Positions 1 through 64,000 of a stretch of DNA of 64,000 nt are shown here, piece after piece. This DNA comes from Bilabrum cf. latius (lineage: Eukaryota). Location: the NCBI GenBank assembly GCA_965178125.1, contig OZ237752.1:248001-312000 (forward strand), read 5' to 3'. Each line of letters opens with the position of its first letter. Position 1 is the first letter of the stretch. A model generated the notes under the pieces. That model did not search any database and was not told the origin of the DNA. It worked only from the letters and a program-made list of their open reading frames with translations. A program made the translations under genes and the position numbers.

Positions 1-3000
1 GCTCTGATTCGTACAGACAGCCATCGATCGCATCCACCAGCAGCCAGAAGAGGGTCAGGCCCAGAGCAATCACCAACGGACTGAGCAGCACGATCGTCGT
101 CCGCAGGAAGTACGCAGACCCATGAGGCATCAGCGACGCCAGACCCGAGGACGCGCCCCCAACACCCAGCGTCACGGCCTCATGAACGCCAAGCGAGTCG
201 GCCAGCAGCTGCTCGTCCGTCTCCTGCGCGTGCGGCCAGTCCAGCGGCGTAGCAGTGGCGTTGTTGTCCCCGGATGCCGCCGCCCGCGCCGCGATCACTC
301 CCCATTCCGCTGCTCCCGCGTCGTCCACCGATACGTTGGCTGCCTGCGCCAGGGCCTCTGCGTCGTCTGTGGCCTGCTGCAGCATGCAGTCAAGGCTGAG
401 CACGTCCGAGCTGACGCTGGAGACAGCTGACATGCTGTTGAAGAGACGGATCGCGGTGTCGGGCCACTTGAGCTTGAAGGATGCCGCGATTGCCACCACC
501 TGAATGTGTGAGAAGAGGATCTTGATGGCCGATACGGTCAGGTCCCGGCGCTCCTTAAGAGTGCCATCTCGTGCATCTGATGGGAGCGAGGCTTCGTCGT
601 CTGCGGAGGATGCATTTCCAGATGCCGCCGGTACAGCTGTATGCACTCTGCCAGACCTGCCATGCATCATGGGGTTGTCCATGATCATGCGTGGACCATC
701 GCTAGCTCCCGACTCGGATGAAGCGCGAGTCATGCTCGTTGGGCGATCGCCATCGGATCCGGGTTTGATCCGTCCAGCACCCCCTACCCCTAGCTGTGCC
801 GCCAGCTTTTCTGCTGCCTGCGCTCCTTGCCTCAGCGCATTGAGCACAAGGCCGATGGACACAAGCACCATTGTTGTCGTCACCAGCACAGCGATCGTAA
901 ACACGGCCAGTCCACCCCGGCACTGCCTGCACTCGTACTGCCCCCATGGCGTGTACCCCGGCTGGCACCGCGCGCACAGCAGCCCCGTGTATCCCTCCTC
1001 GCAGCGCTCGCCCACCCACAGGGGGGCTCCTGCGTCGGTCAGCTCACTGATGCTGGCTCCCTGCGCCGCCGATGTGTTCGATGCTGACTTGCGTATTGCA
1101 CGAGCCCGCTGCAGCGACATTGCCTGTGGCGGAACAATGCCTTCGTACAGTGACTGCAGCGACACATCAGACCACTGTGCCTACTGGCTTGACTGGAGTC
1201 GTCGCTGCGCGGTCGATCCGGAGGAGGGCACGAGGGCATCTGGCGCCCCCTCCTCGGGAGACCCACCAGCCTCAGCCGCATCCAATCTCGCTAGAGACAG
1301 GCACGACTCAGGACGAAGGCACCGCGAGAATGCCGCGCGACCAGGCACCCACGGCAGTCGCTGGTACCCCGCCCGTGCCGCCACCGTGAACGTGGAGCCC
1401 CCATCGCACAGCGAGGCCTCTAGGTCGCAGGGACGGCACACCCACTCGGCCATCGGCAGATGAGTCGTGAGGAACTCCGACGGCGAGCATGACGAAGGGA
1501 TGCCGGGCGTCCACGCCGAGTACGGACTGGATCCGGCGGCGCTGCGGGCCCGCACCCGCACACTCAATGGTCGCGCATCGATTGCCGTGACTACGGCCTA
1601 CATGACAGCAACCCCGCCGGAGGAGCTCCACTGCGCAGTCAGCTCTTCTAGGTCCACATCGAATGCAGTGGATTCGGTTGAGGCCGTGGAGACACTCGTG
1701 TTGGTCCCATCGCCGTCTATTGCCACCTCCGAAATCGACCTCATGTCAATCTAGAAGCCGTCCAGCGGCTCCAGGCCAAGGTCGTTCACCGAGACCGCGG
1801 CAGGGTCGGGGAATGCCCAGCGGACCGTGATGCGGTCATTGCGCTCTCGCCATGCCTGCACATGCTGCGGGAGGTCCGGCCAGGGACTTCCTGTGACACC
1901 GTACGTGAAACGTGGAGCACTCGTCTCGTCGCTGGAGAGCCCGCCGCTCTGATGCACCACCACGGGGAGATCATCGAGGCTCCCGCCCGACAGCGATGGC
2001 ACCACGCACTCCAACGACGTCTCTCCGCGTACGACTACGTCGAGGCACTCGTGTGGACCCATGCTCACACGGGATACATCCGCGCTGCTTCGGCCCAGAC
2101 TCGTCCCGGCGATCACAAGTCGCTCGCCCGCCAAGGCGCTGTCGGGCGTCACCGAGGTCACGATGGGCACTCCTAGGGGCGAGAAGAGGCGGTTGCGAGG
2201 ACTCGTCTGGCTAGCCACCTGCACCTCCACCAGACTGCCCGCAGGCCAGCTGGAACCCTACACGTCCACACAATCGATGCGCGTGCTGGACCTCCACCGA
2301 ATGCTCCCGCATGGCTGGCCGCCCACGAACACCGCCTCCACGTCGGTCTGTCGGAAGCCGAAGTGGAGCCCATGGATGGTGAAGTCGGCCGAGACAAACG
2401 GCCCCATGATGCTGTATGCAGGAAGCACATCCTCCACACTCGGTCCCGCGTAGCTCACCACGTGCTGAGATGCCGATGGCAACCCGGTGCCACCCGACCC
2501 GACCCCCGCCGCTGTGGATGAGTTGCCGCTCAGTGTGTCGACCACCACCGCAACATCCACGCCCACTCCAGGCTCGCAGTACGCCAGCAGCTCCTCGTCC
2601 GACACCCACACAACCACCCTGGACATCTGGCCTCCGACGGTCACTCCACGGACGGCCCATGGACCCGCCCCAAGACCTGAGCCCCGGATCTGCATCAGCC
2701 CCGCAGCTGCACCCGCTCCCACCAGGGTTGGAGCCACGGCAACTGCGTCCGTTGCTGACAGCACCACAGACACTCGTGAGCTGTTTGCCCCCCGCTACTC
2801 CCAGTCGTCAGACCCCGCCAGCTGCAGCAGGGCGGCCAGCTGCACCGACGGAGACTCTCCATCTCCGCGCGCTGCCTGCACCCTCAACGCCGACCCGCTG
2901 GTCACAGCATCGGCGGTCCCATTCGACGGGAACGTCCTGGGACTCAGCACCTGCAGGCGCGGCCGTCCAACCAGCAACAAGCTGCCGCCTGGAGCCATGG

Positions 3001-6000
3001 AAGTCGTCAGCAGCTCCGAAGCGGCTGCCGCATCAAGGCCCCCCGTGGCATCTTGCCCGCCTACCCGCAGCCGCATGTCCACCAGCTGTTGGCGTGTACC
3101 AGCCAGCTCCATGGCCAGCCCACCGGTGCGCCAGTCCTGCACCGAGCATCGCACGCGGACCAACATGTCCACCGATGGATCCCCCAGGGCCGGAGACGTG
3201 CCCTGAATGGCCACCTCTTTGCAGCTGGTGTTCCATCCCGGGCCCTCCAGCAGCACTACCCCGAGGCCGTCCGAGCTCAATGCTTCCCACTGCGTCAGGC
3301 TCCAGCCGGCGTGCTTCACGGACAGCTCCAGCCGCACGTCTTGCTCCTCAGTGTAGGCGACCGCCCGCGGGTAGCTTGCATTGATACTGCCACCCATAAC
3401 GGCAACCGACTGGATCCGCGGCGCGGCATACCCCACCGTCGGTGCCCCTGTCTCGAGGTTCTCGCCGTTCTGGGCTGAAACCACCCGCACCGCGTGGCCA
3501 ACGCCCACACCAGGGGCCAGCAGGCAGCCAATGCGCACCCCAAGCTCGCGCATCTCGACATTGGAACACGCAAATGGTCCCACGGTGACTGATACAATGT
3601 CCTGCGGGGACTAGCCCAGCCCCTCACCGTGTACATCAATCCAGCCTCCCTCCCCGGGAACGACCGCCGGCGTCACCGAGGTAACTTGCACAGGCGGCTG
3701 GAAGGGGAAGGCAGTCAGGTCCACGGCCTCTCGACTCCCTATGACCACCCTCACACTGTAGTCGCCAGGTGTCCACGGCGGAGACAGGCCGCTGCATCGA
3801 ATGGCCGGTCGTTGATCACCCTCACGCTCGGGCACTCCCGACCCGACACCAGCACGCGGGCTGACGTGCCGATGCCCCCTACTCGCGGGATCCCAAAGTG
3901 GCGGCCCGTGACGATCACCTCGTACGACGAGTTCAGCACGTTGTAGACGGTTTGTGGCGACGTGACCACTTGGTCCATCTCTGGGGCGGTAAATCGCAGC
4001 ACACCAACCGCGCTCACGTAGTCGCGGCCCCATACGGTCCGCACCCGCACCACGCCCGCCCCGCCCTCGCTGGCCGACAATGTGCAACGGATCACGAAGT
4101 CGGACTCGACCGTCACGTTGGTGCATGGCGAGCCGTCCACATCTACGGACTCGATGTAGCGCCCCTCGCCCGCCCCCAGCTGCACCCCCAGCAGCTGCAC
4201 GCTCTCCCCACCGCTGGGACTCACCAGTGATGGACTGGCCCCCAGCACGGTGGGGTCCTCCACGACTAGCAGCTGGCTCGCCACGGTAGTCTTGGGAGCA
4301 GTGGGGGCTGGGGTTGTGGAGGAAGACCAGCCTGCGCCACCGGCGGGCTGCAGCGTTGTGTTTATGGCCTGCTTCCATTCCAATGCAAGGGCAGCGCCTC
4401 GGGTCTCCCCGTCGGTCTCATTCGCGGCGTTCACCAGCAAGCTGCCAACCGATACCATACTCACTGCATCAGACGTCACCAGATGTGCGCGCACCCCGCA
4501 CCGCAGCTCCGTGGCAGACACAACCTCTAGAGGGTCGCATCTCTGGCCACCGAGCAGCACTGCCCCCACAGCCAGCTCCCCTCCACTCGTTGCAAGCCCC
4601 GTGCCTCGAACTATGACATCGTGTCTATACTAAGGATCCAGGTGCGTCTCCAGCATCGTGGTGATGCGCACGGTCGCTGGACTTACGGACTGCACCGTGG
4701 GATCCGGCACCGAGACCCAGGCAGCCCGCATGGCGGCCGCTTCTGAAGGGGCAGCGGCCGTCTCATCCTCCACCGCGATTCGAGCTGTCTCCAGCCAGTC
4801 CAGCCCCGGAAGCGACGCCGTCATCGCGAACGGACCCCCCGATCCGTCGGAGCCCAACTTGCACTGAAGGGTCGTGGATGCGGCACTACCCACAGCTGCC
4901 AACCCAGAGCGCCCGGCGGCATCGCACCCAAAGGGGCCCACACGAGCGCGTGCAATCTGCCGACTGCTAGTCACAGATGCATTCGCCAGGCTTGTCCATG
5001 GATACAAGTCGTCGGAGTCTTCCATCAGCAGAGTACCAGCCCCTTCCAGAGCCGCATCCCAGCCCCCGCCTGCACCCCAGCCGTCGCCCACGGGAGCAGC
5101 AGCTAGCACATCCCCCGCCCCCACCTAAGGCCCCCAGCCACCCGACCGCAGCAGCCTCAGGGGACCCAATATACCCACAGCCAAGCACGGCAAGGCGCTG
5201 ACACTGGCATTGGCGGTACCTAGTGCAGTTTGCATATCCCACCTCGCCGCCAGCTGGATCCTCCTTTCGCACGGATCCTATCCTGAGCTCCTTTCCTCTG
5301 TCTGGACCAGAGCGGCGCCCTCCTGCCCGTCATCCGTTGACCACCGCCCATCTGAATACCGAATCACGACCGCGGCCAGTCCAGGCAGAAGCGCCCGCGC
5401 TGGATTGCACTGCACGATGGTGGTGCCCCTGCCGGCGTGCAGGCTGGCGGTGGCGCAAGGCACACCGCCCACCCAGACGTGGGCTGCTTCCTGTGCCCTG
5501 CCCAGATTCGATGGTCGAGGCAAATACACGGGTCGCCGAAGCACCACAGTAATCGCATCGTTGGCACGGCCTGCATGCACCGCGCTGCATCTGGCTGCGG
5601 GACCCACCCAGGCGATGTCCTCGTGAGGCAGCCCCCCTTGGCCAGCTCCCGCCGCCTGGCCCCCGAGCAGTCCCTCCGTCAGCAAGCAGCCTGCCTGCGC
5701 CAAGTGTCGCATGATGGCATCTCCGCCCCACGTGAGATTGGCCCCGGCAATCGCAGCGTCTGTGTCAGGAGCGATCCCGAGAGCTGCGGCGCTGGTGGGG
5801 TCGAGAGGTGGCCAGCCGCCACCACCTGAGCTCGCAACCAGGGTGGCATTGAGGGCAGCACACATGCCGGCAGTGCCTCCGCAGTCCAGCGCACGCGCGC
5901 GTTGCTGGTCCATCAGTCGCATCCAGGGTGGTGTGGAGCTCAGATTGGCCGTGGACGCCTCCATGCGCACCAGACTGCGCCCACTACAGCCAGGGGCAGC

Positions 6001-9000
6001 GGCCAGCAGGTGCACCTGCTGCGTGGCCAGGTCGCTCTGCATACCGACCGTAGTCTCTAGCGCCGTGCCCAGGCGGCACGAGGGCCCCACGCCAGCGGGC
6101 GGAGGCGACCCAGGCTCTTGCCCGTGCAGTGAATCGGCTGCGTGCAACCGCTCCACGATGGCGGATGCATTCCCCATCGGACCCAGCCGTGAGTGCAGGT
6201 CCACTTGTACCCTCGCAACTGCCCCCGCTGAGTCATTGTACCCTGGTGCCCCGGCGTAGAAGACCACGGTTCCGTCATCTCCGAAGCCGAGCAGCTCCAC
6301 AGAGGCTCCAAAGGCCGAGTCCTCAAACAGAAGGGGCCAGCGGCCGTCCAGTCGCAGCGGCATCAGCGCTGGAGACACGAGATGGTGCCCTGCCACTGTG
6401 AATGAGAGCCTGTCCGGCGCTCCTGTGTCCCCTATCACGGCCAGGTGCATCATCACCACGGCACCGAAGCGGCCCCCGCCGGATGACCCGTCAGCCCAGT
6501 CCGGCGCTCCCACCAGCAGCGACACCTCGCCCGCTGCCTCCCCAGGGGACACATCCGGCTCCTGTCCCTCCAGCCGCAGAGGCCCCAGGAACTCGATCGC
6601 CGCCCCGAAGCTGTCGCCCGTACTCCCAGTCGGAGATGCCAAAGTGGCAAGCACCCGCCCCGACCACGCCTGGCCCTCTCTGCTCAGCGACAGTAGCCTC
6701 ACCTCGTCCTCTAGAGGAGCGCCCGCAGCCACCACGTGGTCGTGCAGCCACGTGCCGCCCAGGAGCGCTCGACCCATGCAGGCAACCGCTGCCCCTGTGG
6801 ATGACGGGCCCTCGTGCACTGTGTTGTTGCGGAGCAGTTGCAGCGGCGGCTTGGATCCGCTCCCAGGGCTAGATGCCGCGACCGTGGCCACTCCCACGCG
6901 CCCGGAGAATGCATCGCCCACCAGCAGCGCCAGACTGCCGTCGCCCTGCCTCGAGTCTCCAAGGGAGCACACCGCGCTCCCCTGCAGCAGGACTGCATCT
7001 GGGGAGGTGCCAGGCTCGGATAGGGTCGGCGTGCTAGATCCGTACCCGACACCCATCCTTACGCGATATCCTCCTCGAGAGAGCCACGAGTGGTGCACCT
7101 GGCTTGCGTGTTGCATGCCAGCCCCGCCAGATGCCATCGAGTCACATGATGCTTCCAGCACGATTACAGGAGCATCGCTGGCACCAAAAGCTCCAATCGA
7201 GGACTCCAGAGAGCACGCACCACCCTGCAGTCTGGCTGCCGAGCCTGCTACGGCATGCGCTGGGATGGGTGGCAACGACTGTGAGATCTAGGGGTATTCG
7301 GTTTGGGCCGCATGGCTACTGTTCATAAGAAGAACCCACACCGCACCTTTACCAGAGCCCCCATCATCATCTAGATAGGCCCCCACGGCCATGTCCACCA
7401 CACCGTCTCCGTCCAGGTCCCCCAGCGATACCGCAGAACTGCCGAACAGGTCACTATTATCCAGCTGCCCTGTGAAGCCGCCCTGGGTGTCCGATATCTT
7501 CTGATGCGACTTCACGGTTCCATTAGAATACAAAACGAGTACCCACATAGCCCCTTTACCAGAGCCCCCATCATCATCTAGATAGGCCCCCACAGCCATG
7601 TCCACCACCCCGTCTCCGTCCATGTCCCCCAGCGATGCCACGGAGCTGCCGAAGTAGTCACCGTTATCCAGATATTCCATGAAGCCGCCCTGGGTGTCCG
7701 ATATCTTCTGATGCGACTTCACCATGCCGTTGGATCGAAGGAACAGCACCCATATAGCCCCTCTATCACCGCCCCCATCATCATCATTCATTGCTCCCAC
7801 AGCCATGTCTATCACCTCGTCTCCGTCCAGGTCCCCCAGCGATACCGCAGAACTGCCGAAGTAGTCAAAATTATCCAGCTACCCCGTGAAGCCGCCCTGT
7901 GTGTCTGATATCTTCTGATGCGACTTCACCATGCCGTTGGATCGAAGGAACAGCACCCATATAGCCCCTCTATCACCGCCCCCATCATCATCTAGATAGG
8001 CCCCCACGGCAATGTCCCCCGCCCCGTCTCCGTCCATGTCCCCCAGCGATGCCACAGAAAAGCTGAAGCCGTCACCATCATCCAGCTACCCCGTGAAGCC
8101 GCCCTGGGTGTCTGATATCTTCTGGTGCGACTTCACCATGCCGTTGGATCGAAGGAACAGCACCCACATAGCCCCTGTATTGGAGCCCCCATCGGCATCT
8201 CCATAGGCCCCCACGGCCATGTCCACCACACCGTCTCCGTCCAGGTCCCCCAGCGATGCCGCAGAACTGCCGAAGAGGTCATCATCATCCAGCTACCCCG
8301 TGAAGCCGCCCTGGGTGTCTGATATCTTCTGATGCGACTTCACCATGCCGTTGGATCGAAGGAACAGCACCCATACAGCCCCTCTGAACGTGCCCCCATC
8401 GTTATCTAACCTCGCTCCCACGGCCATGTCCACCACCCCGTCTCCGTCCAGGTCCCCCAGCGATGCCGCAGAGATGCCGAAGAGGTCACTATCATCCAGC
8501 TACCCCGTGAAGCCGCCCTGGGTGTCCGATATCTTCTGATGTCGTAGCTCCGTCGCGGCCGCCGGCATCCCTCCAGCCACTTTCGGATACACGAGTACGC
8601 GATGTGGCCCCGAGCCCCGCCTCCGGATCAGGGCAGACTCCTGCTCTGACCCAACCCGCAGCCGATCCACCCCACGTAGGCCGCAGCCCACGCCACCATC
8701 AGGGAGGCCCATGATGTCCGTGCAGTTGGCCCCGAGGGCCCGCGCACCTGCTGCGCATGCCTCGCCAGCCTCCCCGCACCCCGTGCCGTTGAACCCGAAC
8801 ACCAGATCTGCGCCCGCCATGGACAGCAGGTCAACGCCCGTCAGCTCCTCTCCGCCCCCGTCGTCGCCCTTGATGCTCTGGGGCTCGATCCGCACAGTGG
8901 CCGAGGTGCTGCCGCCGATCGCCAGGGTGCAGTTGGACCGCGGCAGCACCCCGCACGAGGTTGATCGATACGGAGGCTGCCGCACAATGTGAGGGCCCTC

Positions 9001-11105
9001 CCCTGGACACCCGTAGTAGTTGGCGCTGATGGGCCACAGCCGCACCAGCAGGTCAATGCGCCGAGTGCCATCCAGCCCAGCCGCACGCAGAGAGATCGAC
9101 TGCCCCATCCCCCGAGAGGTGGCCTACTCCCCGGCCAGCAAAGTACTGCCAGCCAACAGCATGAAGTGCAGTTCTGCAGGCGGCTCTGAGGCAGTAACAA
9201 TCCAGTTGAAGCGCAGGGTGGCCACCACGTCGCCCTGCAGGTACCCCAGGGGGAGCAACGCGCGGGCGGAGGCACACCCCGACTGCTCCAGGTGCACGGA
9301 ACGGTAGCCGCCAGACTCAGGCAACACCGCCTCTGCGTCGTCGTACAGGGTCCCATCAACCACGTGTGCCTCCGTCGCAAGGGACCACCCCGCGGGCACG
9401 CTGGCAGGATCCACCACGTACTCGTCCTTAGATAGCCCGACGTACCACTATGGCGACGGTGAGGGTCGAATATTACGCGGGAACAGCACCCACATAGCCC
9501 CTCTATTAAAGCCCCCATCATCATCGCGATAAGCCCCCACGGCCATGTCTACCACCCCGTCTCCATCCAGGTCCCCCAGCGATGTCGCTGAATAGCCAAA
9601 GTTGTCATGATTACCCAACCGCCCCGTGAAGCCGCCCTGAGAGTCTGATATCTTCTGATGCGACTTCACCGTGCCGTTGGATCGAAGGAACAGCACCCAC
9701 ATAGCCCCTCTATCAAAGCCCCCATCATCATCTTCATGTGCCCCAACGGCCATGTCCACCGCCCCGTCTCCGTCCAGGTCCCCCAGCGATGCCACAGAAA
9801 TGCCAAAGTTGTCATAATTATCCAGCTACCCCGTGAAGCCGCCCTGGGTGTCTGATATCTTCTGGTGCGACTTTACCATGCCGTTGGATCGAAGGAACAG
9901 CACCCATACAGCCCCTCTCTAAAAGCCCCCATCACGATCGCTATCAGCCCCCACGGCTATGTCCACCACACCGTCTCCGTCCAGGTCCCCCAGCGATGCC
10001 GCAGAATAGCCGAAGCCGTTGCTATTGTCCAGCTACCCCGTGAAGCCGCCCTGGGTGTCTGATATCTTCTGATGCGCCTTCAGCGTGCCGTTCGATCGAA
10101 GGAACAGCACCCACATAGCCCCTCTCTAAGAGCCCCCATCATCATCTCCAGTCGCCCCAACGGCCATGTCCACCACCCCGTCTCCGTCCATGTCCCCCAG
10201 CGATGCCGCAGAACTGCCGAAGTAGCCTTCACGATCCAGCTACCCCGTGAAGCCACCCTGGGTGTCCGATATCTTCTGGTGCGACTTTACCATGCCGTTC
10301 GATCGAAGGAACAGCACCCACATAGCCCCTGTACGAGAGCCCCCATCATCATCGTTATCAGCCCCCACGGCCATGTCCACCACCCCGTCTCCGTCCAGGT
10401 CCCCCAGCGATGCTGCAGAACTGCCGAAGAGGTCATCATCATCCAGCTACCCCGTGAAGCCACCCTGGGTGTCTGATATCTTCTGGTGCGACTTCACCAT
10501 GCCATTGGATCGAAGGAACAGCACCCATACAGCCCTTGTACGAGAGCCCCCATCATCACCATTAGATTTATAGGCACCCACGGCCATGTCCACCACCCCA
10601 TCTCCGTCCAGGTCCCCCAGCGATGCCGCAGAATAGCCGAAGAGGTCACCATCATCCAGCTACCCCGTGAAGCCGCCCTGGGTGTCCGATATCTTCCTAG
10701 TCTCCTGAAGTATATCAGACGCTTCCGACAGCTCACGCTTTCCGAGCAGCTAGTACTCCGTCTGCTGATCGGCTAACTACCGACTGCGGGAAGGAGCTGG
10801 GTGACTTTGCGCACGAAAGGTATGAGCATCAATGATATAAAATGCTACAGTATAACGTTAATTGGGTTCCTGTCAGAAATAAACTGTCGCAATCCTAATC
10901 TTTTGGACCATGATATAAATTCTCACCCAATTGCGTGATCTCCCTCCGTTCGCTGGTAGTTCACAGGCAAACTCGCCTCGCACCGCGCAAGAACAAGCAC
11001 GTACAGCACCAATCGCGCGACTTGTCGTGTAGCGTGTCTAACTGGTCGTGGTAGGCTTGGGGGCTTGCCCAGTATGATACTGGAGGTTGCTTGATCACGC
11101 TGCAT
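1..11105 (-). CDS. Giant surface membrane protein (3' partial): signal peptide, 12 FG-GAP repeats, degenerate FG-GAP region, several IPT/TIG-like domains, Cys-rich segment and multi-pass TM region; needs TAG=Gln
   Basis: Probable ATG at 11105 followed by hydrophobic LVLYVLVLARCEA. A phase-compatible GT-AG intron lies at 10784-10926. ORF-track pieces 9448, 9124, 8500, 7288, 5278, 4630 and 3751 share one frame, and 3611, 2795, 2258, 1751 and 1181 share a second frame; the joins within each frame are TAG. There is one apparent 1-nt frameshift at ~3805. The C-terminal part reads CEEGYTGLLCARCQPGY..ECRQC, then TM helices and KILFSHIQVVAIAASFKLKWP, and runs off the window. Confidence 0.85.
7325..8540 (-). 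repeat. Coding tandem array of six 207-nt FG-GAP repeats (block B)
   Basis: Equivalent codons at 7465, 7672, 7879, 8086, 8293 and 8500 (period 207). Unit reads [63 protein letters not shown]. Confidence 0.95.
9480..10700 (-). repeat. Coding tandem array of six ~207-nt FG-GAP repeats (block A)
   Basis: Equivalent codons at 9619, 9826, 10033, 10240, 10447 and 10660 (last interval 213 nt). Same unit as block B. Confidence 0.95.
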
Positions 11106-15847: not shown

Positions 15848-16171
15848 GGATTGATCAAATTGTAAAATCAATGGCAAGGGATCGATTTTGGGGCTGCACC
15901 GGGATCACATCCGCTAATGCGGGGTAATGCCAGCCGATCCTATACAGTACACGTTATTATTGTAAAGAAACCGGATTGTGGCGAAAAGAAAACCCGGCAG
16001 TCATTTTATCGAACGATCGTGAGTATTTCTGCATTTAATGCGCGTTTTATTCTAACTTGCACTATGATGTAGTAGTTTGGGCTGGTTCGAGTTGGTTAGA
16101 TGTCTCCTGAGTACTCTGACGGGTTTCGCTTGATTGCCGTCGAGCACCTTCCGTTCCTGCGTGCAGTAATA

Positions 16172-16601
16172 ATGGCTGACCTGGAGACTAAGTTCAAGGA
16201 CGCGTCTGATTTTGTGCGAAGTGGCGAGAAGCCCAAGACTGAGATTCCAAATGACCGGAAGCTGGTGCTGTACGGGCTGTACAAGCAAGCTACAGAGGGC
16301 GATGTCTCCGGCTCCCGTCCCTCCGGGTTCCTGGGATTCTCAGGCGAGGCCACCTACAAATGGGATGCCTGGAATGACAACAAGGGTAAGAATATATCAG
16401 ACGGAGCGTTTCTTGAAAAACTTGAACGCCAAATAGGCTGGATCGGGTAGGACTGCGCTCAAGTTCTGTTGCGAACTCGCGGCCAAGCTTTAGTTATTCA
16501 ACCGGTATTATGATTCCATGTGCTATGCAGGCAAGAGCAAGGATGATGCTATGAAGGCGTACATTGAGGAGGTCGAGAAGCAGAAGGTTGAGTTTTTCTG
16601 A
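16172..16601 (+). CDS. ACBP: Acyl-CoA-binding protein, 2 exons (16172-16385, 16531-16601)
   Basis: KLVLYGLYKQATEGD...[25 protein letters not shown] matches the ACBP family. GT-AG intron at 16386-16530. Ends in TGA. Confidence 0.95.
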
Positions 16602-16865
16602 GCGTACAGACCTACGTGGATGCATGCGGTGAAATTCGATGAATTAGCACATATCTAGAATTCCAAGAGGGGTGTCCAACAGTAGACCCAGAAGCTGCCA
16701 TGTCTCCACGGCAACCTGCTGCGTGCATCTGCTGCACAGGCCGCTCAGTATATATGTGTTTCTTCTCGGATCATTGTCTCGGATCACTGGGCCAGATGCT
16801 CTCAGCTTCTTCACGGCAGCCTATTCTCATTCCGCAATTTCCTGCCACGCATGGTGGTTTTGCCA

Positions 16866-24400: not shown

Positions 24401-24775
24401 TCACTCTTCGTCCGTGTACGGGATCACCTTCCATGGTTGCTCGGGGTAGGGCTGCCTGCACTGCGGGCAAAGCCCGTTCTGCTCCTCCTTAATCCTACGC
24501 CAGCAGAACGTGCAAATCTGCGACAAGAATAGTGGGGTGATCGATGTCGTTTTTCGGTGTCATTCTTCGGTGATAGGCCCACTCTTGAGTGCTTGAACCG
24601 GAGTTCAACCATGTGTTCGACCGTTTTCCCCAAGCGGCACGAGCCTACGAGCGTCGCCACACTAAGCAACCCTACTAACCTAGTACTGGCACTGGCATGG
24701 AAAGAATCGCTTGTCTGATAGCTCGAGATCTTCGCAGCACAATGGACATATATCTTCGCCCTCTGTATCTACCAT
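21427..24775 (-). CDS. NOT4: CCR4-NOT subunit NOT4-like RING E3 ligase with RRM, 4 exons (TAG=Gln)
   Basis: C4C4 RING CPLCCEDLELSDKRFFPCQCQY*/ICTFCWRRIKEEQNGLCPQCRQPY and RRM VQIQHNLVYVIGL..FGRYGRIQKI..SAYLQF. Introns at 24518-24679, 24182-24404 and 23486-23638. TAG at 21673 is read through to TGA at 21427. Confidence 0.92.
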
Positions 24776-24962
24776 ACTCCGGCTGATTCCCGTCACTTCA
24801 CCGAATTCCGAACTAGATCTGGTCCTATTCTCTTCGTTGAATAGGATAAACTAACCAAAGTTGCTGTAGCCGTCGAGTAAGGGGCCAGTGAAAATCGTGT
24901 CGACCGGAAAACCAGTGTGAAAGTGCGCTGTACAAAGGCTACGGAACCATCCATATATTTAC

Positions 24963-52000: not shown

Positions 52001-52455
52001 CAGGGGACCGCCGCAATGGAGGCGTTGCCCCGCTCCGCTGGCCGGCTCTGAAGCTGTTCTGCATGGAGTTTCGGGTGGTTGGGAAGCTCGCGACCATGGA
52101 CCAGGTGCGAAGGATTGCCCTCTCCGTCGCAGTTACGGATGTTGTTGCGAGGGCAAGGGCGGCTGGGAGGCCGGTCAGTGCGAAAGCAGTGCGAAGGGGT
52201 CTGGAGCTCGAGGGTGCGCTGCAGCTGTCTTTCTCGCAGTTCCTGGAGCTCTTGGGGAGGCTCGCCGTTTTGTCGTTCGGAAGCAGGGCCGAGCATGATG
52301 CGGTGGAGGGGCCAACGTCTGCGTCCGTGCAAACCACCAAAACGCAGTCTGGTGCTGTTGTCCAGATGGTGCACTACCTTGAGGCTTCTGGAGGCGTGGC
52401 AAAGATCCGCGACCGGGCACGGAGTTCTACCTTGATTAAATTCAGCGCTCGGTGA
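46024..52455 (+). CDS. 2143-aa protein with N-terminal PH domain, long disordered middle and EF-hand-like helical C-terminal regions (about 18 in-frame TAG)
   Basis: EAWLEKKGSGDGIFSSRSW*PRYARL...IIDL...AFEIITTMRSY*LDAGDGDSFEQWLRVL fits the PH pattern. Twelve ORF-track pieces lie in one frame joined by TAG. TGA at 52453-52455. Confidence 0.85.
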
Positions 52456-54558: not shown

Positions 54559-55815
54559 TTAATCTGCAGCATCTGTAACAGTATCATCAGCTTTACTCGA
54601 GCTGGCTTCCATCGCCGGACTCTTTTCTGCTGCAGTGGTCGCCAGTCCGTCAGCCGCTGTCCTCCCACTGGCACCACCACTAGATCCATCCTCCTCCTCA
54701 GCGCTGCCCCCTTCCTCACCCCCTTCCCCGTCCTCTGCATCAGGAAGCCTCTCCCAGCCGGCCTATCCCACATCTTCACTGCCTTCGGCTGCCCCGGCAC
54801 CGTCACCACCCGCACTCTCTGCGCTGCCGCCATTGGCACCCTCCACCTAACCCTCTCCCTCCCCCTCCTAGGCCTTGCTCTCGGAATGCCCCGCCCCCCC
54901 CTGCCCAGCAGCAGCAGCAGCAGCGGTAGCAGCAGCGCCGCTGGTAGCGGGCTCCACCGCCGCCGAAACCTCTGGGACGTACTCGGGCGAGGTCACGCTC
55001 GCTGACTTGGGGATGCGCCCGCCCGCAGGAGCCTCGGGAATGGCGCCCCCCCTTGCCCTCGCGGCCAGCCGGGGGAGGTCCAGGCTGATCTTATCGTGTG
55101 ACAAGTGGGGCGTGGCATCGGTCGGAGGGGCGCTGTCGGCGCTGGCGGCTGCCGCCGTGCCACTTGCAGGGGCAGGTGCTCCGCTTCCGGCGGTCACCGT
55201 GGGCGCACTCGAAGTGGGGGCAGCAGCCGGCGGCAGGAGGCCGAGGAGACCCTCACCTCGCGCCACGGCTGCTGCCACCATTCGATCCACCAAGGCACCC
55301 TGGGAGCCTCTCGGTGGCTTCAGCTGGAGAGCTGCCATTGATTTCTGCACCTCGAGGGCTTCGTCTTCGTCCATTGGGCTGACCGGCCGGCCGATCAACT
55401 TATCCTCGCGCTCCTCTCGGAATGGATCGAAATCATCTTCGGCAAGCTCTTCAGCACCTTCGAATGTTTGCCTCGCGCTGCCACCGCCAGCCTGTACTCC
55501 GGTTTTGCCTTGCTTCTTTTTGCGACGAGATCTCCTAGACTTGCGCTTGCCGCTTCCTGGTGCGGTGGCTGGCTCTTTCGGGGCTGATGAAGCAGACGCA
55601 CCAGCATGAGATCTATCTGTGGAGCCCACATCTGAAGCTGTTGTTGACTCGCGAGCCTCAGTGGTTCGAGTTGCTGCAATTGTGCTAGCATACTCTCGTT
55701 CCATTCTCGCCATCTTGGCATCAACCAAGCGCAGTGCCATAGCAAATCGGCGCTGTTCCGCAGCTGCCTACTTTACATCATCTTGTGCTCCAGATTCCTG
55801 CCCCGAACCAGACAT
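54559..55815 (-). CDS. Hypothetical protein, 418 aa, acidic Gly-rich C-terminus
   Basis: ATG at 55815 in an aaataATG context, as for PUF. Four in-frame TAGs (55768, 54868, 54847, 54763). Ends at TAA 54559-54561. Confidence 0.72.
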
Positions 55816-56069
55816 TATTTTTCTGTCTTCACACCCTTCTCTGGGCTTTTGCGCGATCGTGCAATGCTACACAAATTTGGTTGCAACCGCACGCAAGGGT
55901 GCACCAACGCCCCTATCGGGTTGACATTGAAGGCCTTGGAGCCTCCGCATAAGCACCTTCCAGACCTCTCGCCAAGAATTAGAATCCTGCGGCACTAGCA
56001 GATAATTGGGTTTTGATCATAGCGATACTGAACACATCTGTAGCTGAAGGCATGAAGGGCTTGAATCCG

Positions 56070-59000
56070 ATGACACACTCTCGAAGGCACGGAGCTACAC
56101 GGTCTCCAGTAGCGCTTATAGCTGTGATATTCCTACTCATATCGACTTGCTTCGTATCGTTGACAAGAGCCGGCCTTGAACCAGGTAAGAGACATTCGTT
56201 GATGGATACGAATTCAGTTGAAACAGCAACACCGCTTGAGCATTTGCGCGTTTACATGATCTACCGCGATGATCTATGCAACGCAGATCTCATGTGGATG
56301 GCTGCGCCTCTGTCTGATGCATCCATTTCTTCATAGCGAGTATGGGAGCCCGTCAATGGGATGAACGTATCCGTGTCGCTCGCCAGCCCGGCCAGCGTCC
56401 TGATCACGTACTCTCTCCCCGTTGGGGCCGACAAGCCCAACTTACCCGGTGGAGATTTTCTCACCACGCCGGGTCTACCATCTTCCGGACAAGGCGATTT
56501 CGTCGGGTCCAGGCTGCTTGTCAACGGGCGAGCCTACAGATAGTCTGGCTCGCACGCGTCTCCCCTGTCTTCATTGGAGCGTTCTGCTAGGCAGTTGCGC
56601 GGAATATTAACTATTTCATTGCCAGCCGGTGAGCACACAGTCGTGGTTCAGTGGAAGAAGTGGGGAGACTGGGTGCGCCAGTGGTACTCGAGGCCTAGCC
56701 TGGCCGATGGGTTTGCGCAAGGGAGAGCGGTGACGGTGGGCGCCGTGTATCTCACACTCAACCTGGCTTCGCCTCTCTCATAGGCAGTGATTGCAAGGGG
56801 TGACGAGTGGTAGGACGTTCCCGGAATGTCAGTTCAGTTTTCGTTCGACCCGGATGCAGCAGGCGAGCCTAGCGTTGCAGGCAAGGTGTCGGATCGGTTC
56901 GCATTCGCCTACGTTCTCCACGTGAGACCCAACCAGGCCCCCGGCGCGGACCCGTTCAAATCAAAAGACGTGCTATCCACGCGACTGGCTATCGATTCGG
57001 TCCCGTACAGGGCCTCCTCGAGCCACTTTAGGACAGTGACGAGGTCGTTCGCCTCTGGATCCCTGGTGGGCGCCCTCGCCCTGGACCTGCCGGCTGGCAA
57101 CCACACCGCAAAGCTGCAGTGGCGCAAGTCAGCCGGCGGCTCCGTTCGAACGTGGTGGTCGCAGCCTACTTTCCTTGACGGGTTCGTGACCAGTCGCACG
57201 CTGGCGGTGTACAGGGACCGGTTTCCAGTCGAGGCCGCCACCGGCCTGGCCGGATTTCCAGGGGCAGGGTAGACAGGGGCCGACGCGGACGGATCATCCT
57301 CTTCCACGTCGTGGCGGCAGGTGCGCGGCGGCCTGTTGCCCTTGTCGCTTCACAAAAAGACGTTCATGAGGCTGTCGTACGCCGTGTCTCTGTCGAGGTA
57401 CGGCCAGCCGACGTTCGACTCGAACACGTGGCGGCGCTGGGGGACGGTGTCCACGCGCCTGGTAGTGGATGGGAGGCCCTACCGTTCCACCGCCACCAGC
57501 TTGGATGGGGGCGTGCCTGCGGGCGAGAGCATGTCGGGGACTGCTGTGCTGGCACTGCCGCCCGGCGACCACACGGTGGTGCTGCAGTGGAGGCCGCAGG
57601 GCGAGGCGCCGGCCGACTGGGCCGGATTGCTGTCTCTGTTCGATGGGTTTGCAGGTGCGACCATCACGACGTCTGAGGCGAGCGCCTCCAACAGCCCGCC
57701 AAGGGTGCGGGTACCCCCGACAATCCGTGAGAACGACTGGACCGTCTCGTTCTTTGAAGACGAGCCGGGCAAGGTCGAGGGCATGAGGGTGACGGATCCA
57801 GACACGGACATCGAGCCCAGCATGGAGGTTGAGGTAACTGTTAGTGTTGTGCATGGTAGCGTGCTGCTGGGGTGCGGACCAGACAACCCGGTGGCTCCTG
57901 GGAGAGTGAGCCTTGCGGTGGACCAGGACGTCGCTGCTCTGCCGGTCGAGGTGAGCGTGACCGTGCCTGGTCCGGACCCCTCGAGCCCGACCAGCGGTGC
58001 CGGTTCCTTTGGCCGGGAGATTGCACTGCGAGGAGCCATCGATGCCGTCAACAGCGCCATCAGGGTGATGAGGTATGCCCCCGACCTCGACTACAACGGC
58101 AACGATACACTGGTGGTGCAGGTGGATGATCTCGGCAATGTTGGCTCCGGTGGCACGGCCCTCTAGAGCTATGGAAACGTGTCTTTTGACGTGCGGCCTG
58201 TCAATGACGAGCCGAGCATAGAAGCTCCCGCGAGCCTGGTTGTGGACGAGGACAGTACAACCCAGCTCTAGGGGATCCTGCTGAACGACACTGACGCGCT
58301 CGATGGCTTCCGCTCCTCGGTGGCACTGGCTGAGATTGCCATGGCTGGCGGCATGCAATGGGAGCTGGGGCTCGCGGTAGTTGCCGGAACGGTCTCGCTG
58401 CCAAGCACTGCGGTGTCAGGCGTGGTCATTCCTGCAGTTAGCAACGAGACTGCTGGTGCGTACAGCTCCGACGCCCTCGGCACAGCTGCGCCAGTGCTAC
58501 GGTCAGACTTCAACGTGTCAGGCAACGGCACCGCTCGCGTAACTGTATCCGCGAGTCTGGCAGTTCTCCGTTCGCTTCTGCCTGCGATCGTCTATGCGCC
58601 GCTCCCTGACTCTAATAGAAACCGGGTCAGGGAGCAGCTGTCAGTCTCGCTGTCTGACATGGGGCTATCGCGGGGCGTAAGAGGGAGCGTACCGCACGTC
58701 CAGCCTGGTGAGAGCGCCACCGACAAGAGGGTGCAGTACGCTGCAGTCACGGTGCCTATCGATGTGGTGCCTGTGAACGACGCCCCTGTGCTGGAGGAGG
58801 GTGAGGACTCGGTCATTACGCTGAACAGCCTCACCGTGGACCAGGCTGACCTGGAGTCCACGGATGACATCACCGTAACGCTGTCGGCATCCATGCCAAA
58901 CACAAGCCTCGATCTGCCTGCCGCAACGGCGGACGTGGACATTTCCCACGGTGACGAGGCGTGGTCCGGCGAGGGCGCCTACCTGCAGCTCACAGGCCCA

Positions 59001-62000
59001 CTAGCAAGCGTGCAGGCATCGCTGTCGTCAGTGAGGTACGGCCGGTCTCCGCACTTTGACGGCAGCGACTCTCTGTTTGTCATTGCGGGGTAGTCGTCCT
59101 CAATGGCGAACGCGTCTAGCGTTGGCGAGGGCAGCAATTTCGCTCCAATTGGATCGGAATCACTGTCTGCTCGTGACGCAGCCTTGCAGCTGCAGCAGTT
59201 CGGCGGGTTCCGACCGACCGTGGCATCAATTGAGGTTACGTTCGACCGCCGCCCGAGCGACACTGTCCCAGTCCCGCAGGAAGCGTGGCCGGACAGCGGG
59301 TCCACAAGGGGAGGGACCCTCGTTACGATCTTCGGGGAACATTTCGATGCGTTCCAGGAATCGGTTGATTCCTTCTCGGACTGTCCCCAAGTGGACCTCA
59401 CCTAGCAGCAGGCTGTCCTCCTTGCCAACGTGCAGGCATCTGTTGACCTCGACAGCGCCATGATCAGCGAGGATGGTACAGGGCCACTGAACATGAGCGG
59501 GATGGTCCCTGCGGGTGGCCTGCCCGCCACCACGTGCTTCCTGCGAGACACCCTGTCTTGCCACTTCGGAGACGCTGGCAGCAGCCAAGCGCTAGTCGGG
59601 AACGCGTCGCGAATGGTGCCCGACCTGGTGGCAAGCGGTGACCTCATGGAGTCTACTACCGTGGTGCAGTGCATGTCCCCGCCCATGCCTTCAAACAGGC
59701 TTCCTAGTGGAGTGCTTGTGCACGTTGGTGGTCAAGAGCAGCGGGGACGGGCCATGTTCACGCAGGGCACAGAATTCTTCTACAGGTATCCGTGGTCAGT
59801 GGGTCACGTGCAGCCTAGGATTGCCTCAAAGAACGGAGGCACAAGGTTGCACGTGTCTGGTTCTGGCTTCTCGCCTAGCATAGATTTGACTTGCGCGTTT
59901 CGACTCGGCTCGATGGAGTTGCGCACGCTAGGCCTGTTTATTTCGAGCTCTATGGTCGAGTGCAACATACCACCGTTGGCCGGTGCGGGCGGCGGCGACA
60001 GGCTACAGGTTTGCGTGGCTGTGAACGGAGCGGATTTCCAGTGCGGCAACGGCCACGATGCATCCGTGACCCTTGCAGACGACCTATTGATTGGCTCGCC
60101 CCTGCCCACCATGGTGCTGGCGGGTAGAACTGGCCATGTCCAGATTGACGTCATGAATCTGCACGTAGTGCCAACTATTGAGTGCAAAGTAGTAATAGCA
60201 GGCACGGTGCACGTGTCTCCGGCTCAGGTACTACGAATGGCTGTGGCATCCAATGAGACCTCGTCAGTGTCATGTGATGTGCCGACCATGCGCAGCGCCC
60301 CTGGAAGCCACGCAGAGCTTACCCTCATGCAGAACGGGCAGGACGAGTCGAACCGACTATCTATTCAGGTTCTCGAGGACACTGTCATCGAAGCAATACG
60401 GCCGGCAATGGGGAATCCTGGAGACAATATAACGTTAGTTGGCATGGGCTTCTTGCAAACTACAGAGCTGTCGTGCTTGTTCGGCGACGTTACAGTACCA
60501 GCTAAATTCATTTCTACAACTTTAGTCGAGTGTCCGACACCAGTGGTAGGCAACCGTACTTTTGATGTTGTTGAGGTGTCTGTGAACGGGGCTGACTTTT
60601 CTCGGGATGGCCAGCGGTTCCAGTACTTGCCTTCGTCGTACGTGAGCTCCGTGTCTCCATCGCTCGGACCTGTATCTGGGGGCACGTCTCTTCGTGTGCG
60701 TGGCCTAGGGTTTGCCAGCACTGGCGATCTGGGCTGCGTATTTGTGGCAGCTGGATCTGTGTCTGATTCGGCTGGGGCGGTGTCTTTGGGTGCAGTGTCG
60801 GCTGGTCGATGGTTGAGCAGCGGTCAGCTGGTATGTGACAGTCCTGCAGCAGGCTCTGTGCCTGGTGTGTCCAACGAGGGCGGGCTTGTGGACGTGTATG
60901 TGACCACGAATGGCGTGGATGTATCGGATTCGTCTGCCTTGTTCGAGCTGCATGGGTCCGTGACCGTTTCGGGCGTGTCACCATTGAGCGGGGGCATGGC
61001 AGGCGGCACGGCTGTTCGCGTGAGTGGCTCTGGCTTTGCATTCGGCAGTGGATTGTCATGCCGCTTCGGGGAGGACAGCACGAGCGCACAGTACGTGTCG
61101 TCCACGGAGGTGGTGTGCGTGTCTCCTGCGTTGTCTGGCATGGGCTCTAACGAGTCGTCAGTGTCGGTGGCAGTGTCAGTGAGCCGGAATGGCATCGACT
61201 TCGGGTCAAGCTCTGGGGCGTTCCTTTACGAGCGCGGCGCCGTGGTGTCATCTGTGTCGCCTTCGACGGGCGTGGTGGGAGGCGGCACGGCAGTGGTGGT
61301 ATCAGGATCAGGCTTTGAGAATCGGACTGGTCTGTCATGCCGGTTCGGCTCTAGCGGGTCCGTGCCTGCTGTGTACGTGAACTCGAGCGCAGTGCGCTGT
61401 GTGAGTCCACCGGCATCGTCAGCGGTGCCATCTGGCGGCGCAGATGGCGGTATGGTGTCTGTGGAGGTGTCTGTGAACGGGGCTGACTTTTCTCGGGATG
61501 GCCAGCGGTTCCAGTACTTGCCTTCGTCGTACGTGAGCTCCGTGTCTCCATCGCTCGGACCTGTATCTGGGGGCACGTCTCTTCGTGTGCGTGGCCTAGG
61601 GTTTGCCAGCACTGGCGATCTGGGCTGCGTATTTGTGGCAGCTGGATCTGTGTCTGATTCGGCTGGGGCGGTATCTTTGGGTGCAGTGTCGGCTGGTCGA
61701 TGGTTGAGCAGCGGTCAGCTGGTATGTGACAGTCCTGCAGCAGGCTCTGTGCCTGGTGTGTCCAACGAGGGCGGGCTTGTGGACGTGTATGTGACCACGA
61801 ATGGCGTGGATGTATCGGATTCGTCTGCCTTGTTCGAACTGCATGGGTCCGTGACCGTTTCGGGCGTGTCACCATTGAGCGGGGGCATGGCAGGCGGCAC
61901 GGCTGTTCGCGTGAGTGGCTCTGGCTTTGCATTCGGCAGTGGATTGTCATGCCGCTTCGGGGAGGACAGCACGAGCGCACAGTACGTGTCGTCCACGGAG

Positions 62001-64000
62001 GTGGTGTGCGTGTCTCCTGCGTTGTCTGGCATGGGCTCTAACGAGTCGTCAGTGTCGGTGGCAGTGTCAGTGAGCCGGAATGGCATCGACTTCGGGTCAA
62101 GCTCTGGGGCGTTCCTTTACGAGCGCGGCGCCGTGGTGTCATCTGTGTCGCCTTCGACGGGCGTGGTGGGAGGCGGCACGGCAGTGGTGGTATCAGGATC
62201 AGGCTTTGAGAATCGGACTGGTCTGTCATGCCGGTTCGGCTCTAGCGGGTCCGTGCCTGCTGTGTACGTGAACTCGAGCGCAGTGCGCTGTGTGAGTCCA
62301 CCGGCATCGTCAGCGGTGCCATCTGGCGGCGCAGATGGCGGTATGGTGTCTGTGGAGGTGTCTGTGAACGGGGCTGACTTTTCTCGGGATGGCCAGCGGT
62401 TCCAGTACTTGCCTTCGTCGTACGTGAGCTCCGTGTCTCCATCGCTCGGACCTGTATCTGGGGGCACGTCTCTTCGTGTGCGTGGCCTAGGGTTTGCCAG
62501 CACTGGCGATCTGGGCTGCGTATTTGTGGCAGCTGGATCTGTGTCTGATTCGGCTGGGGCGGTATCTTTGGGTGCAGTGTCGGCTGGTCGATGGTTGAGC
62601 AGCGGTCAGCTGGTATGTGACAGTCCTGCAGCAGGCTCTGTGCCTGGTGTGTCCAACGAGGGCGGGCTTGTGGACGTGTATGTGACCACGAATGGCGTGG
62701 ATGTATCGGATTCGTCTGCCTTGTTCGAGCTGCATGGGTCCGTGACCGTTTCGGGCGTGTCACCATTGAGCGGGGGCATGGCAGGCGGCACGGCTGTTCG
62801 CGTGAGTGGCTCTGGCTTTGCATTCGGCAGTGGATTGTCATGCCGCTTCGGGGAGGACAGCACGAGCGCACAGTATGTGTCGTCCACGGAGGTGGTGTGC
62901 GTGTCTCCTGCGTTGTCTGGCATGGGCTCTAACGAGTCGTCAATGTCGGTGGCAGTGTCAGTGAGCCGGAATGGCATCGACTTCGGGTCAAGCTCTGGGG
63001 CGTTCCTTTACGAGCGCGGCGCCGTGGTGTCATCTGTGTCGCCTTCGACGGGCGTGGTGGGAGGCGGCACGGCAGTGGTGGTATCAGGATCAGGCTTTGA
63101 GAATCGGACTGGTCTGTCATGCCGGTTCGGCTCTAGCGGGTCCGTGCCTGCTGTGTACGTGAACTCGAGCGCAGTGCGCTGTGTGAGTCCACCGGCATCG
63201 TCAGCGGTGCCATCTGGCGGCGCAGATGGCGGTATGGTGTCTGTGGAGGTGTCTGTGAACGGGGCTGACTTTTCTCGGGATGGCCAGCGGTTCCAGTACT
63301 TGCCTTCGTCGTACGTGAGCTCCGTGTCTCCATCGCTCGGACCTGTATCTGGGGGCACGTCTCTTCGTGTGCGTGGCCTAGGGTTTGCCAGCACTGGCGA
63401 TCTGGGCTGCGTATTTGTGGCAGCTGGATCTGTGTCTGATTCGGCTGGGGCGGTATCTTTGGGTGCAGTGTCGGCTGGTCGATGGTTGAGCAGCGGTCAG
63501 CTGGTATGTGACAGTCCTGCAGCAGGCTCTGTGCCTGGTGTGTCCAACGAGGGCGGGCTTGTGGACGTGTATGTGACCACGAATGGCGTGGATGTATCGG
63601 ATTCGTCTGCCTTGTTCGAGCTGCATGGGTCCGTGACCGTTTCGGGCGTGTCACCATTGAGCGGGGGCATGGCAGGCGGCACGGCTGTTCGCGTGAGTGG
63701 CTCTGGCTTTGCATTCGGCAGTGGATTGTCATGCCGCTTCGGGGAGGACAGCACGAGCGCACAGTACGTGTCATCCACGGAGGTGGTTTGCGTGTCTCCT
63801 GCGTTGTCTGGCATGGGCTCTAACGAGTCGTCAGTGTCGGTGGCAGTGTCAGTGAGCCGGAATGGCATCGACTTCGGGTCAAGCTCTGGGGCGTTCCTTT
63901 ACGAGCGCGGCGCCGTGGTGTCATCTGTGTCGCCTTCGACGGGCGTGGTGGGAGGCGGCACGGCAGTGGTGGTATCAGGATCAGGCTTTGAGAATCGGAC
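56070..64000 (+). CDS. Giant secreted/surface protein (3' partial): signal peptide, three repeated beta domains, cadherin-like domains and many IPT/TIG domains
   Basis: Signal-like VALIAVIFLLISTCFVSLTRA and a probable intron at 56185-56286. All ORF pieces 56013-59405 share a frame joined by TAG, and the frame then stays open to the window end. Motifs VNDEP/VNDAP, YAPDLDYNGNDTL and VSPSxGxxxGGTxVxVxGxGF..LSCRFG. Confidence 0.88.
60573..64000 (+). repeat. Near-identical 891-nt coding tandem repeat (297 aa, three IPT/TIG domains), at least 3.8 copies
   Basis: Units start at 60573, 61464, 62355 and 63246, with only a few single-base differences between copies. Confidence 0.97.

Follow-up and report, generated by a model that had tools for sequence, protein, structure and literature searches.

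Evidence for reassignment of UAG to glutamine, with UGA as the main terminator, in the nuclear DNA of a GC-rich protist

Introduction

Does the codon UAG still end proteins, or does it encode glutamine, in the organism behind a 64,000-nucleotide (nt) stretch of DNA in which nearly every gene carries in-frame TAG? This stretch, hereafter the window, comprises positions 248,001 to 312,000 of contig OZ237752.1 (GenBank assembly GCA_965178125.1, deposited as Bilabrum cf. latius), and the positions below are counted from its first letter. The best reading of the window is that it belongs to the nuclear genome of a GC-rich eukaryote with few introns, that UAG there has changed from a stop to a glutamine codon, that UGA serves as the main terminator and that UAA is not used as sense; a probability of about 0.85 is assigned to this reading. 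The whole analysis covers this one 64-kilobase (kb) window and is based on assembled contigs, not raw reads, on 12 judged TAG sites and on a single-gene phylogeny.

Nuclear code changes are rare, and those separating UAG from UAA are rarer still. An original prediction, made from the letters of the window alone, had called glutamine at UAG only a rare pattern in nuclear genomes and had given Iotanema as an example. Iotanema spirale is indeed reported, yet the pattern is less unique than this wording implied, as sections of PMC11687900 also describe it for Protocruzia tuzeti and two phyllopharyngean ciliate lineages.

Results

Reading TAG as sense opens long frames

The window has a G+C content of approximately 62%. 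Under the standard code, 50 stop-to-stop open reading frames (ORFs) of at least 250 amino acids (aa) could be detected, the longest with 1593 aa. When TAG was read as glutamine (Q), 71 such ORFs were obtained, and neighbouring short standard-code ORFs fused into frames of 2682 aa with 10 TAG (open at the 3' side), 2368 aa with 19, 2150 aa with 21, 2083 aa with three, 1714 aa with 15 and 1472 aa with six (open), in addition to frames of 1058 and 1014 aa; the long frames thus carry between three and 21 TAG each. Two controls were made. Reading TAA alone as Q left the longest ORF at 1593 aa, and reading TGA as tryptophan lengthened overlapping frames on both strands without specificity, as expected with the rare TAA as the sole remaining stop. 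Moreover, Pfam domains (FG-GAP, IPT/TIG, EGF, PUF, PH and M18 aminopeptidase) lie in the same frames, often downstream of TAGs.

Codon counts were taken over 17 frame segments with a total of 17,580 codons. The coding frame contains 93 TAG, no TAA and no TGA, whereas the two off-frames of the same segments contain 115 and 107 TAG, 41 and 58 TAA, and 275 and 329 TGA. With 549 CAG and 160 CAA in the coding frame, TAG makes up about 0.5% of all in-frame codons and 93 of the 802 glutamine-type codons (TAG, CAG and CAA). The absence of in-frame TAA and TGA follows from the frames having been delimited by those codons, and the weight rests on the existence of frames thousands of codons long where stops reach a density of about 2% off frame, with TAG undepleted. 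The bases flanking TAG also resemble those flanking CAG: G precedes the codon in a fraction of 0.45 of TAGs versus 0.52 of CAGs, and C and G at position +4 reach 0.37 and 0.36 after TAG versus 0.38 and 0.32 after CAG.

The fusion of ORFs and these counts confirm the earlier claim that TAG serves as a sense codon in many genes. The accompanying statement that every gene model except ACBP contains in-frame TAG was right about ACBP, whose spliced coding sequence (CDS) has none. Some of the TAGs counted do lie outside the CDS, however: two at 20476-20481 fall in the DNPEP intron, some others in 5' leaders, and ORF 41584-44760 has one close to its end that probably belongs to an intron. The report of no internal TAA or TGA, apart from one TGA after an apparent frameshift, was borne out, and the exception is the TGA at 3751-3753, which follows a frame change at about 3805-3815.

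Programmed stop-codon readthrough, which would be limited to few genes with a special downstream context, was also considered and was rejected: almost all genes contain TAG, and the bases at -1 and +4 are the same as around CAG.

TAG is retained in spliced transcripts

By comparing the window with public sequencing runs, DNA-like and RNA-like contigs could be told apart. Four runs of one sample contain 0.98 of the sampled words of 16001-26000, and three runs from two other studies (X5, X6 and X7) contain 0.68-0.76 of them. Contigs of X1, X5, X6 and X7 were aligned over 15501-35500. Six GT..AG stretches, in the sense of the coding strand, are skipped in the contigs of X5-X7 and none is skipped in those of X1, which are DNA-like; in addition, an X6 contig carries a poly(A) run after 16651, at the 3' end of ACBP. 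No run is annotated as RNA, and X5-X7 are taken as RNA because of the GT-AG joints and the poly(A) end.

The contigs of X5-X7 show no base difference from the window and cover at least 14 TAGs: one in DNPEP, one in the NOT4 RING, three in the PUF frame and nine in the frame starting at 32150. For DNPEP, exon 1 is present over 20609-21106 and the intron of 20425-20608 is spliced out; for the PUF frame, 25388-26163 and 26249-27162 are covered; and a single X5 contig of 5162 nt spans 32168-33903 and 33996-35500 with all nine TAGs kept, in each case without a difference. These data bear directly on the possibility that the TAGs are an artefact, that is, spliced out, edited to CAG, or located in pseudogenes or misassembled DNA. 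Such a view could draw on the two TAGs in the DNPEP intron, which is a real intron, and on the single frameshift in the giant FG-GAP/TIG gene. However, spliced contigs from three runs and two studies are collinear with the DNA over the covered TAGs, decay would scatter TAA and TGA through the frames as well (the counts are 93 TAG versus none of either), and relatives conserve TAG positions with the frame continuing beyond them. As spliced, polyadenylated contigs keep TAG unchanged, removal by splicing and U-to-C editing are excluded as a general explanation, and the artefact is refuted at the covered sites; its overall probability is close to negligible. The check proposed with the original prediction, whether TAG stays in the mRNA or is spliced or edited to CAG, therefore came out on the side of retention, as read from contigs, in which minor edited variants could be missed.

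Some features of the contigs themselves were also noted. At 24839-25505 and 26840-28173, the summed contig depth exceeds that of neighbouring positions 100-fold in each of the four runs (in X1, approximately 2,000-3,500 versus 30), and many loose ends with simple repeats of the CAG/CAC type occur at the same places. These spots are low-complexity coding repeats (poly-Q/H and GA dipeptides) that draw contigs from elsewhere. In three runs, the RNA-like contigs of the PUF frame all break off at 31418-31426, within a Gly/Arg-rich repeat and roughly 110 nt short of the frame's TGA; the assembly, and not the transcript, probably stops here owing to low complexity.

Residues facing TAG point to glutamine

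The identity of the encoded residue was judged at 12 TAG sites, against solved structures or close relatives and with TAG masked as X in the alignments; P0136 was dropped from the alignments as a duplicate of P0123. Glutamine faces TAG at seven sites (one in the NOT4 RING, one in DNPEP, four in frame 55953 and one in the PH gene), E at two, and K, D and S at one each. The sum of BLOSUM62 scores over the 12 sites is highest for Q (40), followed by E (27) and K (13), with L and S far below Q. At a background of 5%, the probability of seven or more Q among 12 sites is 5e-7.

One site lies in the NOT4 RING. Its spliced message reads C-Q-C-Q-Y-TAG at the end of exon 1 and continues with I-C-T-F-C-W. 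In alignments with the solved NOT4 RING chains, exon 1 extends up to Q36 of 1e4u, Q29 of 5aie and Q25 of 1ur6, and exon 2 starts at residues 37, 30 and 26, respectively. These borders place the TAG at 24680-24682 on the conserved glutamine of the NOT4 RING in all three structures. At the DNPEP site, Q is found in the nearest ortholog P0002 (83-85% identical), in a local context that is otherwise identical; the column holds Q in four, N in two, and K and A in one each of eight aligned homologs.

Seven sites come from the giant surface-protein frame starting at 55953. Codons 197, 277 and 287 face Q in P0123 (82% identity) and codon 440 faces Q in P0121 (96%), while codon 128 has D opposite it, and codons 1047 and 1151 have K and E opposite them in P0122 (92%). 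Two sites lie in the PH gene, where codon 260 faces Q in P0138 (81%) and codon 372 faces S in P0139 (69%), and the last is codon 418 of frame 54559-56016 (TAG at 54763-54765), which faces E in L001, a related metagenome locus. At the DNA level, L001 has 74% nucleotide identity, and of five window TAGs compared with it three lie opposite CAG, one opposite GAC and one opposite GTT. Furthermore, in one column of the 69-residue FG-GAP repeat, nine units carry TAG and three others carry CAG, CGG and TAT, respectively, which is weak evidence only, as the column represents one propagated event.

It might still be asked whether UAG specifies another amino acid, with Glu and Lys as the next best candidates, or is decoded through near-cognate readthrough with mixed products. 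Close relatives have E at two sites and K at one, and E ranks second by BLOSUM62 sum. On the other hand, Q is the facing residue at most sites, including the conserved RING glutamine and three TAG/CAG pairs, and the context of TAG mirrors that of CAG. Moreover, GAG (E), AAG (K) and TCG (S) are each one base from TAG, and we read these residues as replacements at tolerant sites, where such single-base neighbours are expected. A different or mixed residue is thus regarded as highly improbable. The earlier assignment of TAG to glutamine agrees with these alignments, within a small sample from one window.

UGA and UAA as terminators

TGA is a verified terminator of two genes: at 19246-19248 it ends DNPEP exactly at the C-terminus of its homologs, and in the spliced ACBP CDS it is the final codon, with the poly(A) site 50 nt further on. 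Among about 10 frame ends, eight are TGA, two are TAA and none needs TAG; the ends of DNPEP and ACBP are the two that were checked independently. Together with the lack of in-frame TGA, this upholds the claim that UGA remains a stop.

The situation of UAA is less direct. If both UAA and UAG encoded glutamine, as in NCBI table 6, TAA could simply be too rare to appear in frames of a window with 62% GC. TAA is indeed rare overall (369 versus 842 TAG on both strands), and direct support for TAA as a stop is weak. However, about 27 in-frame TAA would be expected if the ratio of TAA to the 160 CAA matched that of TAG to CAG (93:549), and none was observed, against the off-frame counts given above. 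Reading TAA as sense also extends the frames by just 5, 52 and 190 codons of 5' leader and by 147 codons after a doubtful tail that looks non-coding. A glutamine assignment for both codons is accordingly very unlikely, and TAA has no appreciable use as sense. A terminator role of TAA is likely, given the two frames ending in it, 54559-56016 and 38442, the second of which has the non-coding-looking tail. With regard to the prediction that UAA remains a stop, its exclusion from sense use therefore stands, while its terminator role is based on just one or two ORF ends.

Observations weighing against the reading

Several observations count against UAG as an ordinary glutamine codon beside UAA and UGA stops, and they are brought together here. 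Five of the 12 judged sites face residues other than Q (E twice; K, D and S once each), so that 58% of TAG sites face Q, compared with 81 of 93 ordinary CAG/CAA glutamines in the same alignments. In solved DNPEP structures, the TAG site is occupied by K, S, S, S and D, a comparison that was judged uninformative. More distant hits of the PH gene (P0140-P0143, 25-46% identity) have K, N, N, E and K; K; Q and M; and D and Y at TAG sites, and these residues were left uncounted because the alignments are unreliable. For UAA, the terminator role comes from one or two ORF ends, and the L001 ortholog of frame 54559-56016 ends elsewhere, with TGA. Finally, TAG is unevenly distributed along the long frames, with 57 in first halves and 26 in second halves.

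This skew could hint at position dependence or could result from the make-up of few genes, and it is relevant to an ambiguous code, in which UAG would encode glutamine and yet act as a terminator near the 3' ends of mRNAs, comparable to the context-dependent stop/sense codes of some ciliates. Besides the scarcity of TAG in second halves, several frames have a TAG about 25-80 codons before their TGA or TAA, and the gene ends checked against homologs or poly(A) are two in number, both TGA. Nevertheless, each of the roughly 10 frames runs on to TGA or TAA, at least one late TAG is probably intronic, and the gene sample is too small for a positional skew to mean much. An ambiguous code is thus considered unlikely. 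As a separate observation bearing on position-dependent termination, the concentration of TAG in first halves may merely reflect TAG-free tandem repeats and the small number of genes.

Close relatives and phylogenetic placement

Further evidence was provided by relatives of the window. Public protein fragments predicted with the standard code in close relatives end exactly at window TAGs, and several fragments come from one contig. In frame 55953, the fragments stop just ahead of codons 128 (P0124) and 738 (P0121); in frame 32150, just ahead of codons 668 (P0127) and 1259 (P0125). The protein search with frame 32150 returned only fragments ending at TAGs, which hold no information on residue identity. 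In metagenomes, no relative was obtained with one protein as the query, and one locus, L001, was obtained with an alignment. The in-frame TAGs of L001 itself face TCG, ACA and CAT in the window, conserved sequence continues after them, and a neighbouring L001 gene also contains TAGs. As relatives at about 74-97% identity share in-frame TAG, the reassignment is a property of a lineage and not of one strain. Since standard-code gene callers cut proteins at every TAG, as in these fragments, annotations of the organism and of its metagenome relatives will stay wrong unless table 15 is used.

The host was placed by means of DNPEP. Among the matches listed, the closest named relative is a cluster with proteins of Cafeteria roenbergensis/burkhardae (53% identity), and Platysulcus tardus is also among the hits. 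A tree was built with IQ-TREE from the window and 68 of 120 listed homologs, namely those of at least 350 aa among P0001-P0060 and seven named sequences. The window, P0001 and P0002 form a clade with a Shimodaira-Hasegawa-like approximate likelihood ratio test (SH-aLRT) value of 100, and the Cafeteria cluster belongs to the sister group of this clade (98). The host is therefore probably a stramenopile near the bicosoecids, beside Cafeteria, a placement that is tentative because it comes from a single-gene tree. This position is far from all lineages reported with glutamine at UAG only, which favours an independent origin, as the original prediction had proposed for a GC-rich protist.

Identical sequence is present in runs X1-X7 under at least three organism labels from three studies, which may reflect inconsistent labelling or a companion organism in other cultures.

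Comparison with known codes and possible mechanism

The closest counterpart in codon use is Iotanema spirale, a fornicate in which UAG also encodes glutamine and UAA does not, and for which excerpts of PMC5304391 describe a predicted tRNA-Gln(CUA) and an eRF1 with weakened UAG recognition. The two differ in that UAA is the dominant stop of Iotanema (PMC5304391, in the same sections), whereas here TGA ends eight of about 10 frames and TAA at most two. Moreover, Iotanema is a metamonad, whereas DNPEP of the present GC-rich window groups with stramenopiles. Among ciliates, the phyllopharyngeans Hartmannula sinica and Trochilia petrani as well as Protocruzia tuzeti are described in parts of PMC11687900 with the codon table found here (UAG as glutamine, UAA and UGA as stops) and with UAG distributed like synonymous glutamine codons. 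In those ciliates, UAA ends 93.5-100% of C-terminal alignments (PMC11687900), whereas UGA dominates here; in addition, the host is no ciliate by the DNPEP tree and has ordinary GT-AG introns and poly(A) tails.

Codes in which both UAA and UAG encode glutamine (table 6: many ciliates, hexamitin diplomonads and some ulvophycean green algae) share the change from stop to glutamine, and passages of PMC5304391 mention tRNA-Gln(CUA) in organisms of this kind. They differ in using UAA as sense as well, a codon that is absent from the frames of the window. UAG and UAA are uncoupled, as here, in the rhizarian exLh and some ciliate metagenome-assembled genomes, where UAG encodes leucine, and in Scotinosphaera, where it encodes serine (PMC11687900, in part), but the residue is different, and leucine and serine score far below glutamine at the window sites.

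A mechanism can be proposed by analogy with other UAG-only codes. The decoder would be a tRNA-Gln whose anticodon, CUA, differs by one base from that of the CUG isoacceptor and pairs with UAG and not with UAA; in excerpts of PMC5304391, CUA is given as the only anticodon that reads UAG without reading UAA. In parallel, eRF1 would have lost recognition of UAG and kept that of UAA and UGA; in Iotanema, the GTS motif of eRF1 is changed (PMC5304391, same excerpts). We infer that a CUG-to-CUA change in the anticodon of a tRNA-Gln gene may have captured UAG when it was already a rare terminator, and that such a capture would have been cheap in a GC-rich, mostly UGA-terminating background, in which few genes ended in UAG. 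No tRNA genes were found in the window or in L001, and no Rfam families, including rRNA, were found in the window.

We read the code as the same known codon table (the table 15 pattern) in a new lineage, differing from the cases above in its host, its GC-rich genome and its use of UGA as the main stop. Full-text literature searches, which left most subscription journals and the supplements uncovered, found no nuclear code change in stramenopiles, bicosoecids or new protists, so that a report on the source genome could exist; term searches gave no statement on the nuclear genetic code in the main texts of PMC12614181 (on Incisomonas) and PMC11412368 (a stramenopile overview). At about even odds, the case may represent the first change of the nuclear code within the stramenopiles, in which glutamine captured UAG independently in a GC-rich, UGA-terminating, bicosoecid-related flagellate lineage with at least three sequence-distinct relatives. 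If so, UAG-only reassignment can arise under GC pressure and not just in AT-rich, UAA-terminating genomes. A phylogenetically remote case would also serve as an independent replicate for identifying which changes of eRF1 and tRNA-Gln drop UAG alone, and a GC-rich genome with UGA stops would test whether UAG becomes rare as a terminator before it is reassigned ('codon capture').

Genes and repeats of the window

The coordinates of the genes and frames are compiled in Table 1.

Table 1. Genes, frames and TAG sites of the 64-kb window (introns from spliced contigs)
Feature	Position	Strand	Details
Continuation of FG-GAP/TIG gene	2..4417	-	other frame; 1472 codons; TIG domain; 6 TAG
FG-GAP/TIG frame	3751..10857	-	2368 codons; 19 TAG, nine in one column of the 69-residue repeat
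ACBP gene	15695..16651	+	three exons; joints 16018>16167, 16384>16530, GT..AG; Pfam ACBP
ACBP introns	16019-16166, 16385-16529	+	
ACBP spliced CDS		+	94 aa; no TAG; TGA stop; 50-nt 3' untranslated region; poly(A) after 16651
DNPEP (aspartyl aminopeptidase, M18) gene	19246..20989	-	Pfam M18 on both exons
DNPEP exon 2	19249-20424	-	
DNPEP intron	20425-20608	-	184 nt; GT-AG; two TAGs
DNPEP exon 1	from 20609 up	-	
DNPEP in-frame TAG	20756..20758	-	exon 1
NOT4-like gene	21427..24787	-	RING, RRM-like region, long low-complexity tail; three introns; TGA stop
NOT4-like introns	23485-23637, 24181-24403, 24518-24679	-	
Second TAG of NOT4-like gene	21673-21675	-	
NOT4 RING TAG	24680..24682	-	last codon of exon 1; TAC TAG, then GTTAGT...CAG intron; joint 24517>24680 in X5, X6, X7
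Pumilio (PUF) repeat frame	25283..31534	+	TGA end; TAG 25535-25537 (may be 5' leader), 26357-26359, 26750-26752
Frame 32150	32150..37294	+	1714 codons; 15 TAG; TGA end
Second FG-GAP frame and EGF-repeat frame	38442..44760	-	FG-GAP 41584-44760 (3 TAG); EGF 38442-41486 (4 TAG)
PH-domain frame	46003..52455	+	2150 codons; 21 TAG; TGA end
PH-gene TAG	46780-46782	+	faces Q in a relative
PH-gene TAG	47116-47118	+	faces S in a relative
Acidic low-complexity frame	54559..56016	-	5 TAG; TAA end; best TAA-terminator candidate in the window
Giant surface-protein frame	55953..63998	+	2682 codons; 10 TAG; open at window end
Codons 197, 277, 287 of frame 55953	56541-3, 56781-3, 56811-3	+	CAG in L001

The two frames at 3751-10857 and 2-4417 are one gene, as judged from the TIG domain, which reads S-V-R-V-I-N-D-R in one frame and A-I-R-C-S-G-L-S-P-P in the other across a one-base frame change. 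An indel in the assembly could account for this change, as could a genuine frameshift or slippage of the ribosome. Similarly, frames 41584-44760 and 38442-41486, both with Ser/Pro-rich linkers, are probably one gene joined by an intron from a GTGAGT site; the downstream frame is the one with the TAA end and the tail already mentioned. If this intron is real, it contains the TAG and the TGA that close the upstream frame. Frame 32150-37294 gave no match in the Pfam search.

Repeats were observed in two regions. In the giant surface-protein frame, Tandem Repeats Finder (TRF) reported no tandem array (period above 500), and a separate periodicity script gave a period of 891 nt: near-identical tandem units of this length (297 aa, IPT/TIG-like) run on the plus strand from about 60541 to the end of the window and contain no TAG. 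The second region is a segmental duplication at 11840-16160, located in the one stretch of the window with a lower G+C content (52%). Blocks 11840-12139 and 12286-12585 are repeated about 1960 nt downstream with 99% identity, and blocks 13272-13493 and 13571-13800 are repeated about 2360 nt downstream with 95-97%, the last copy overlapping the 5' exon region of ACBP. On the minus strand, the duplicated region contains ankyrin-like peptide stretches.

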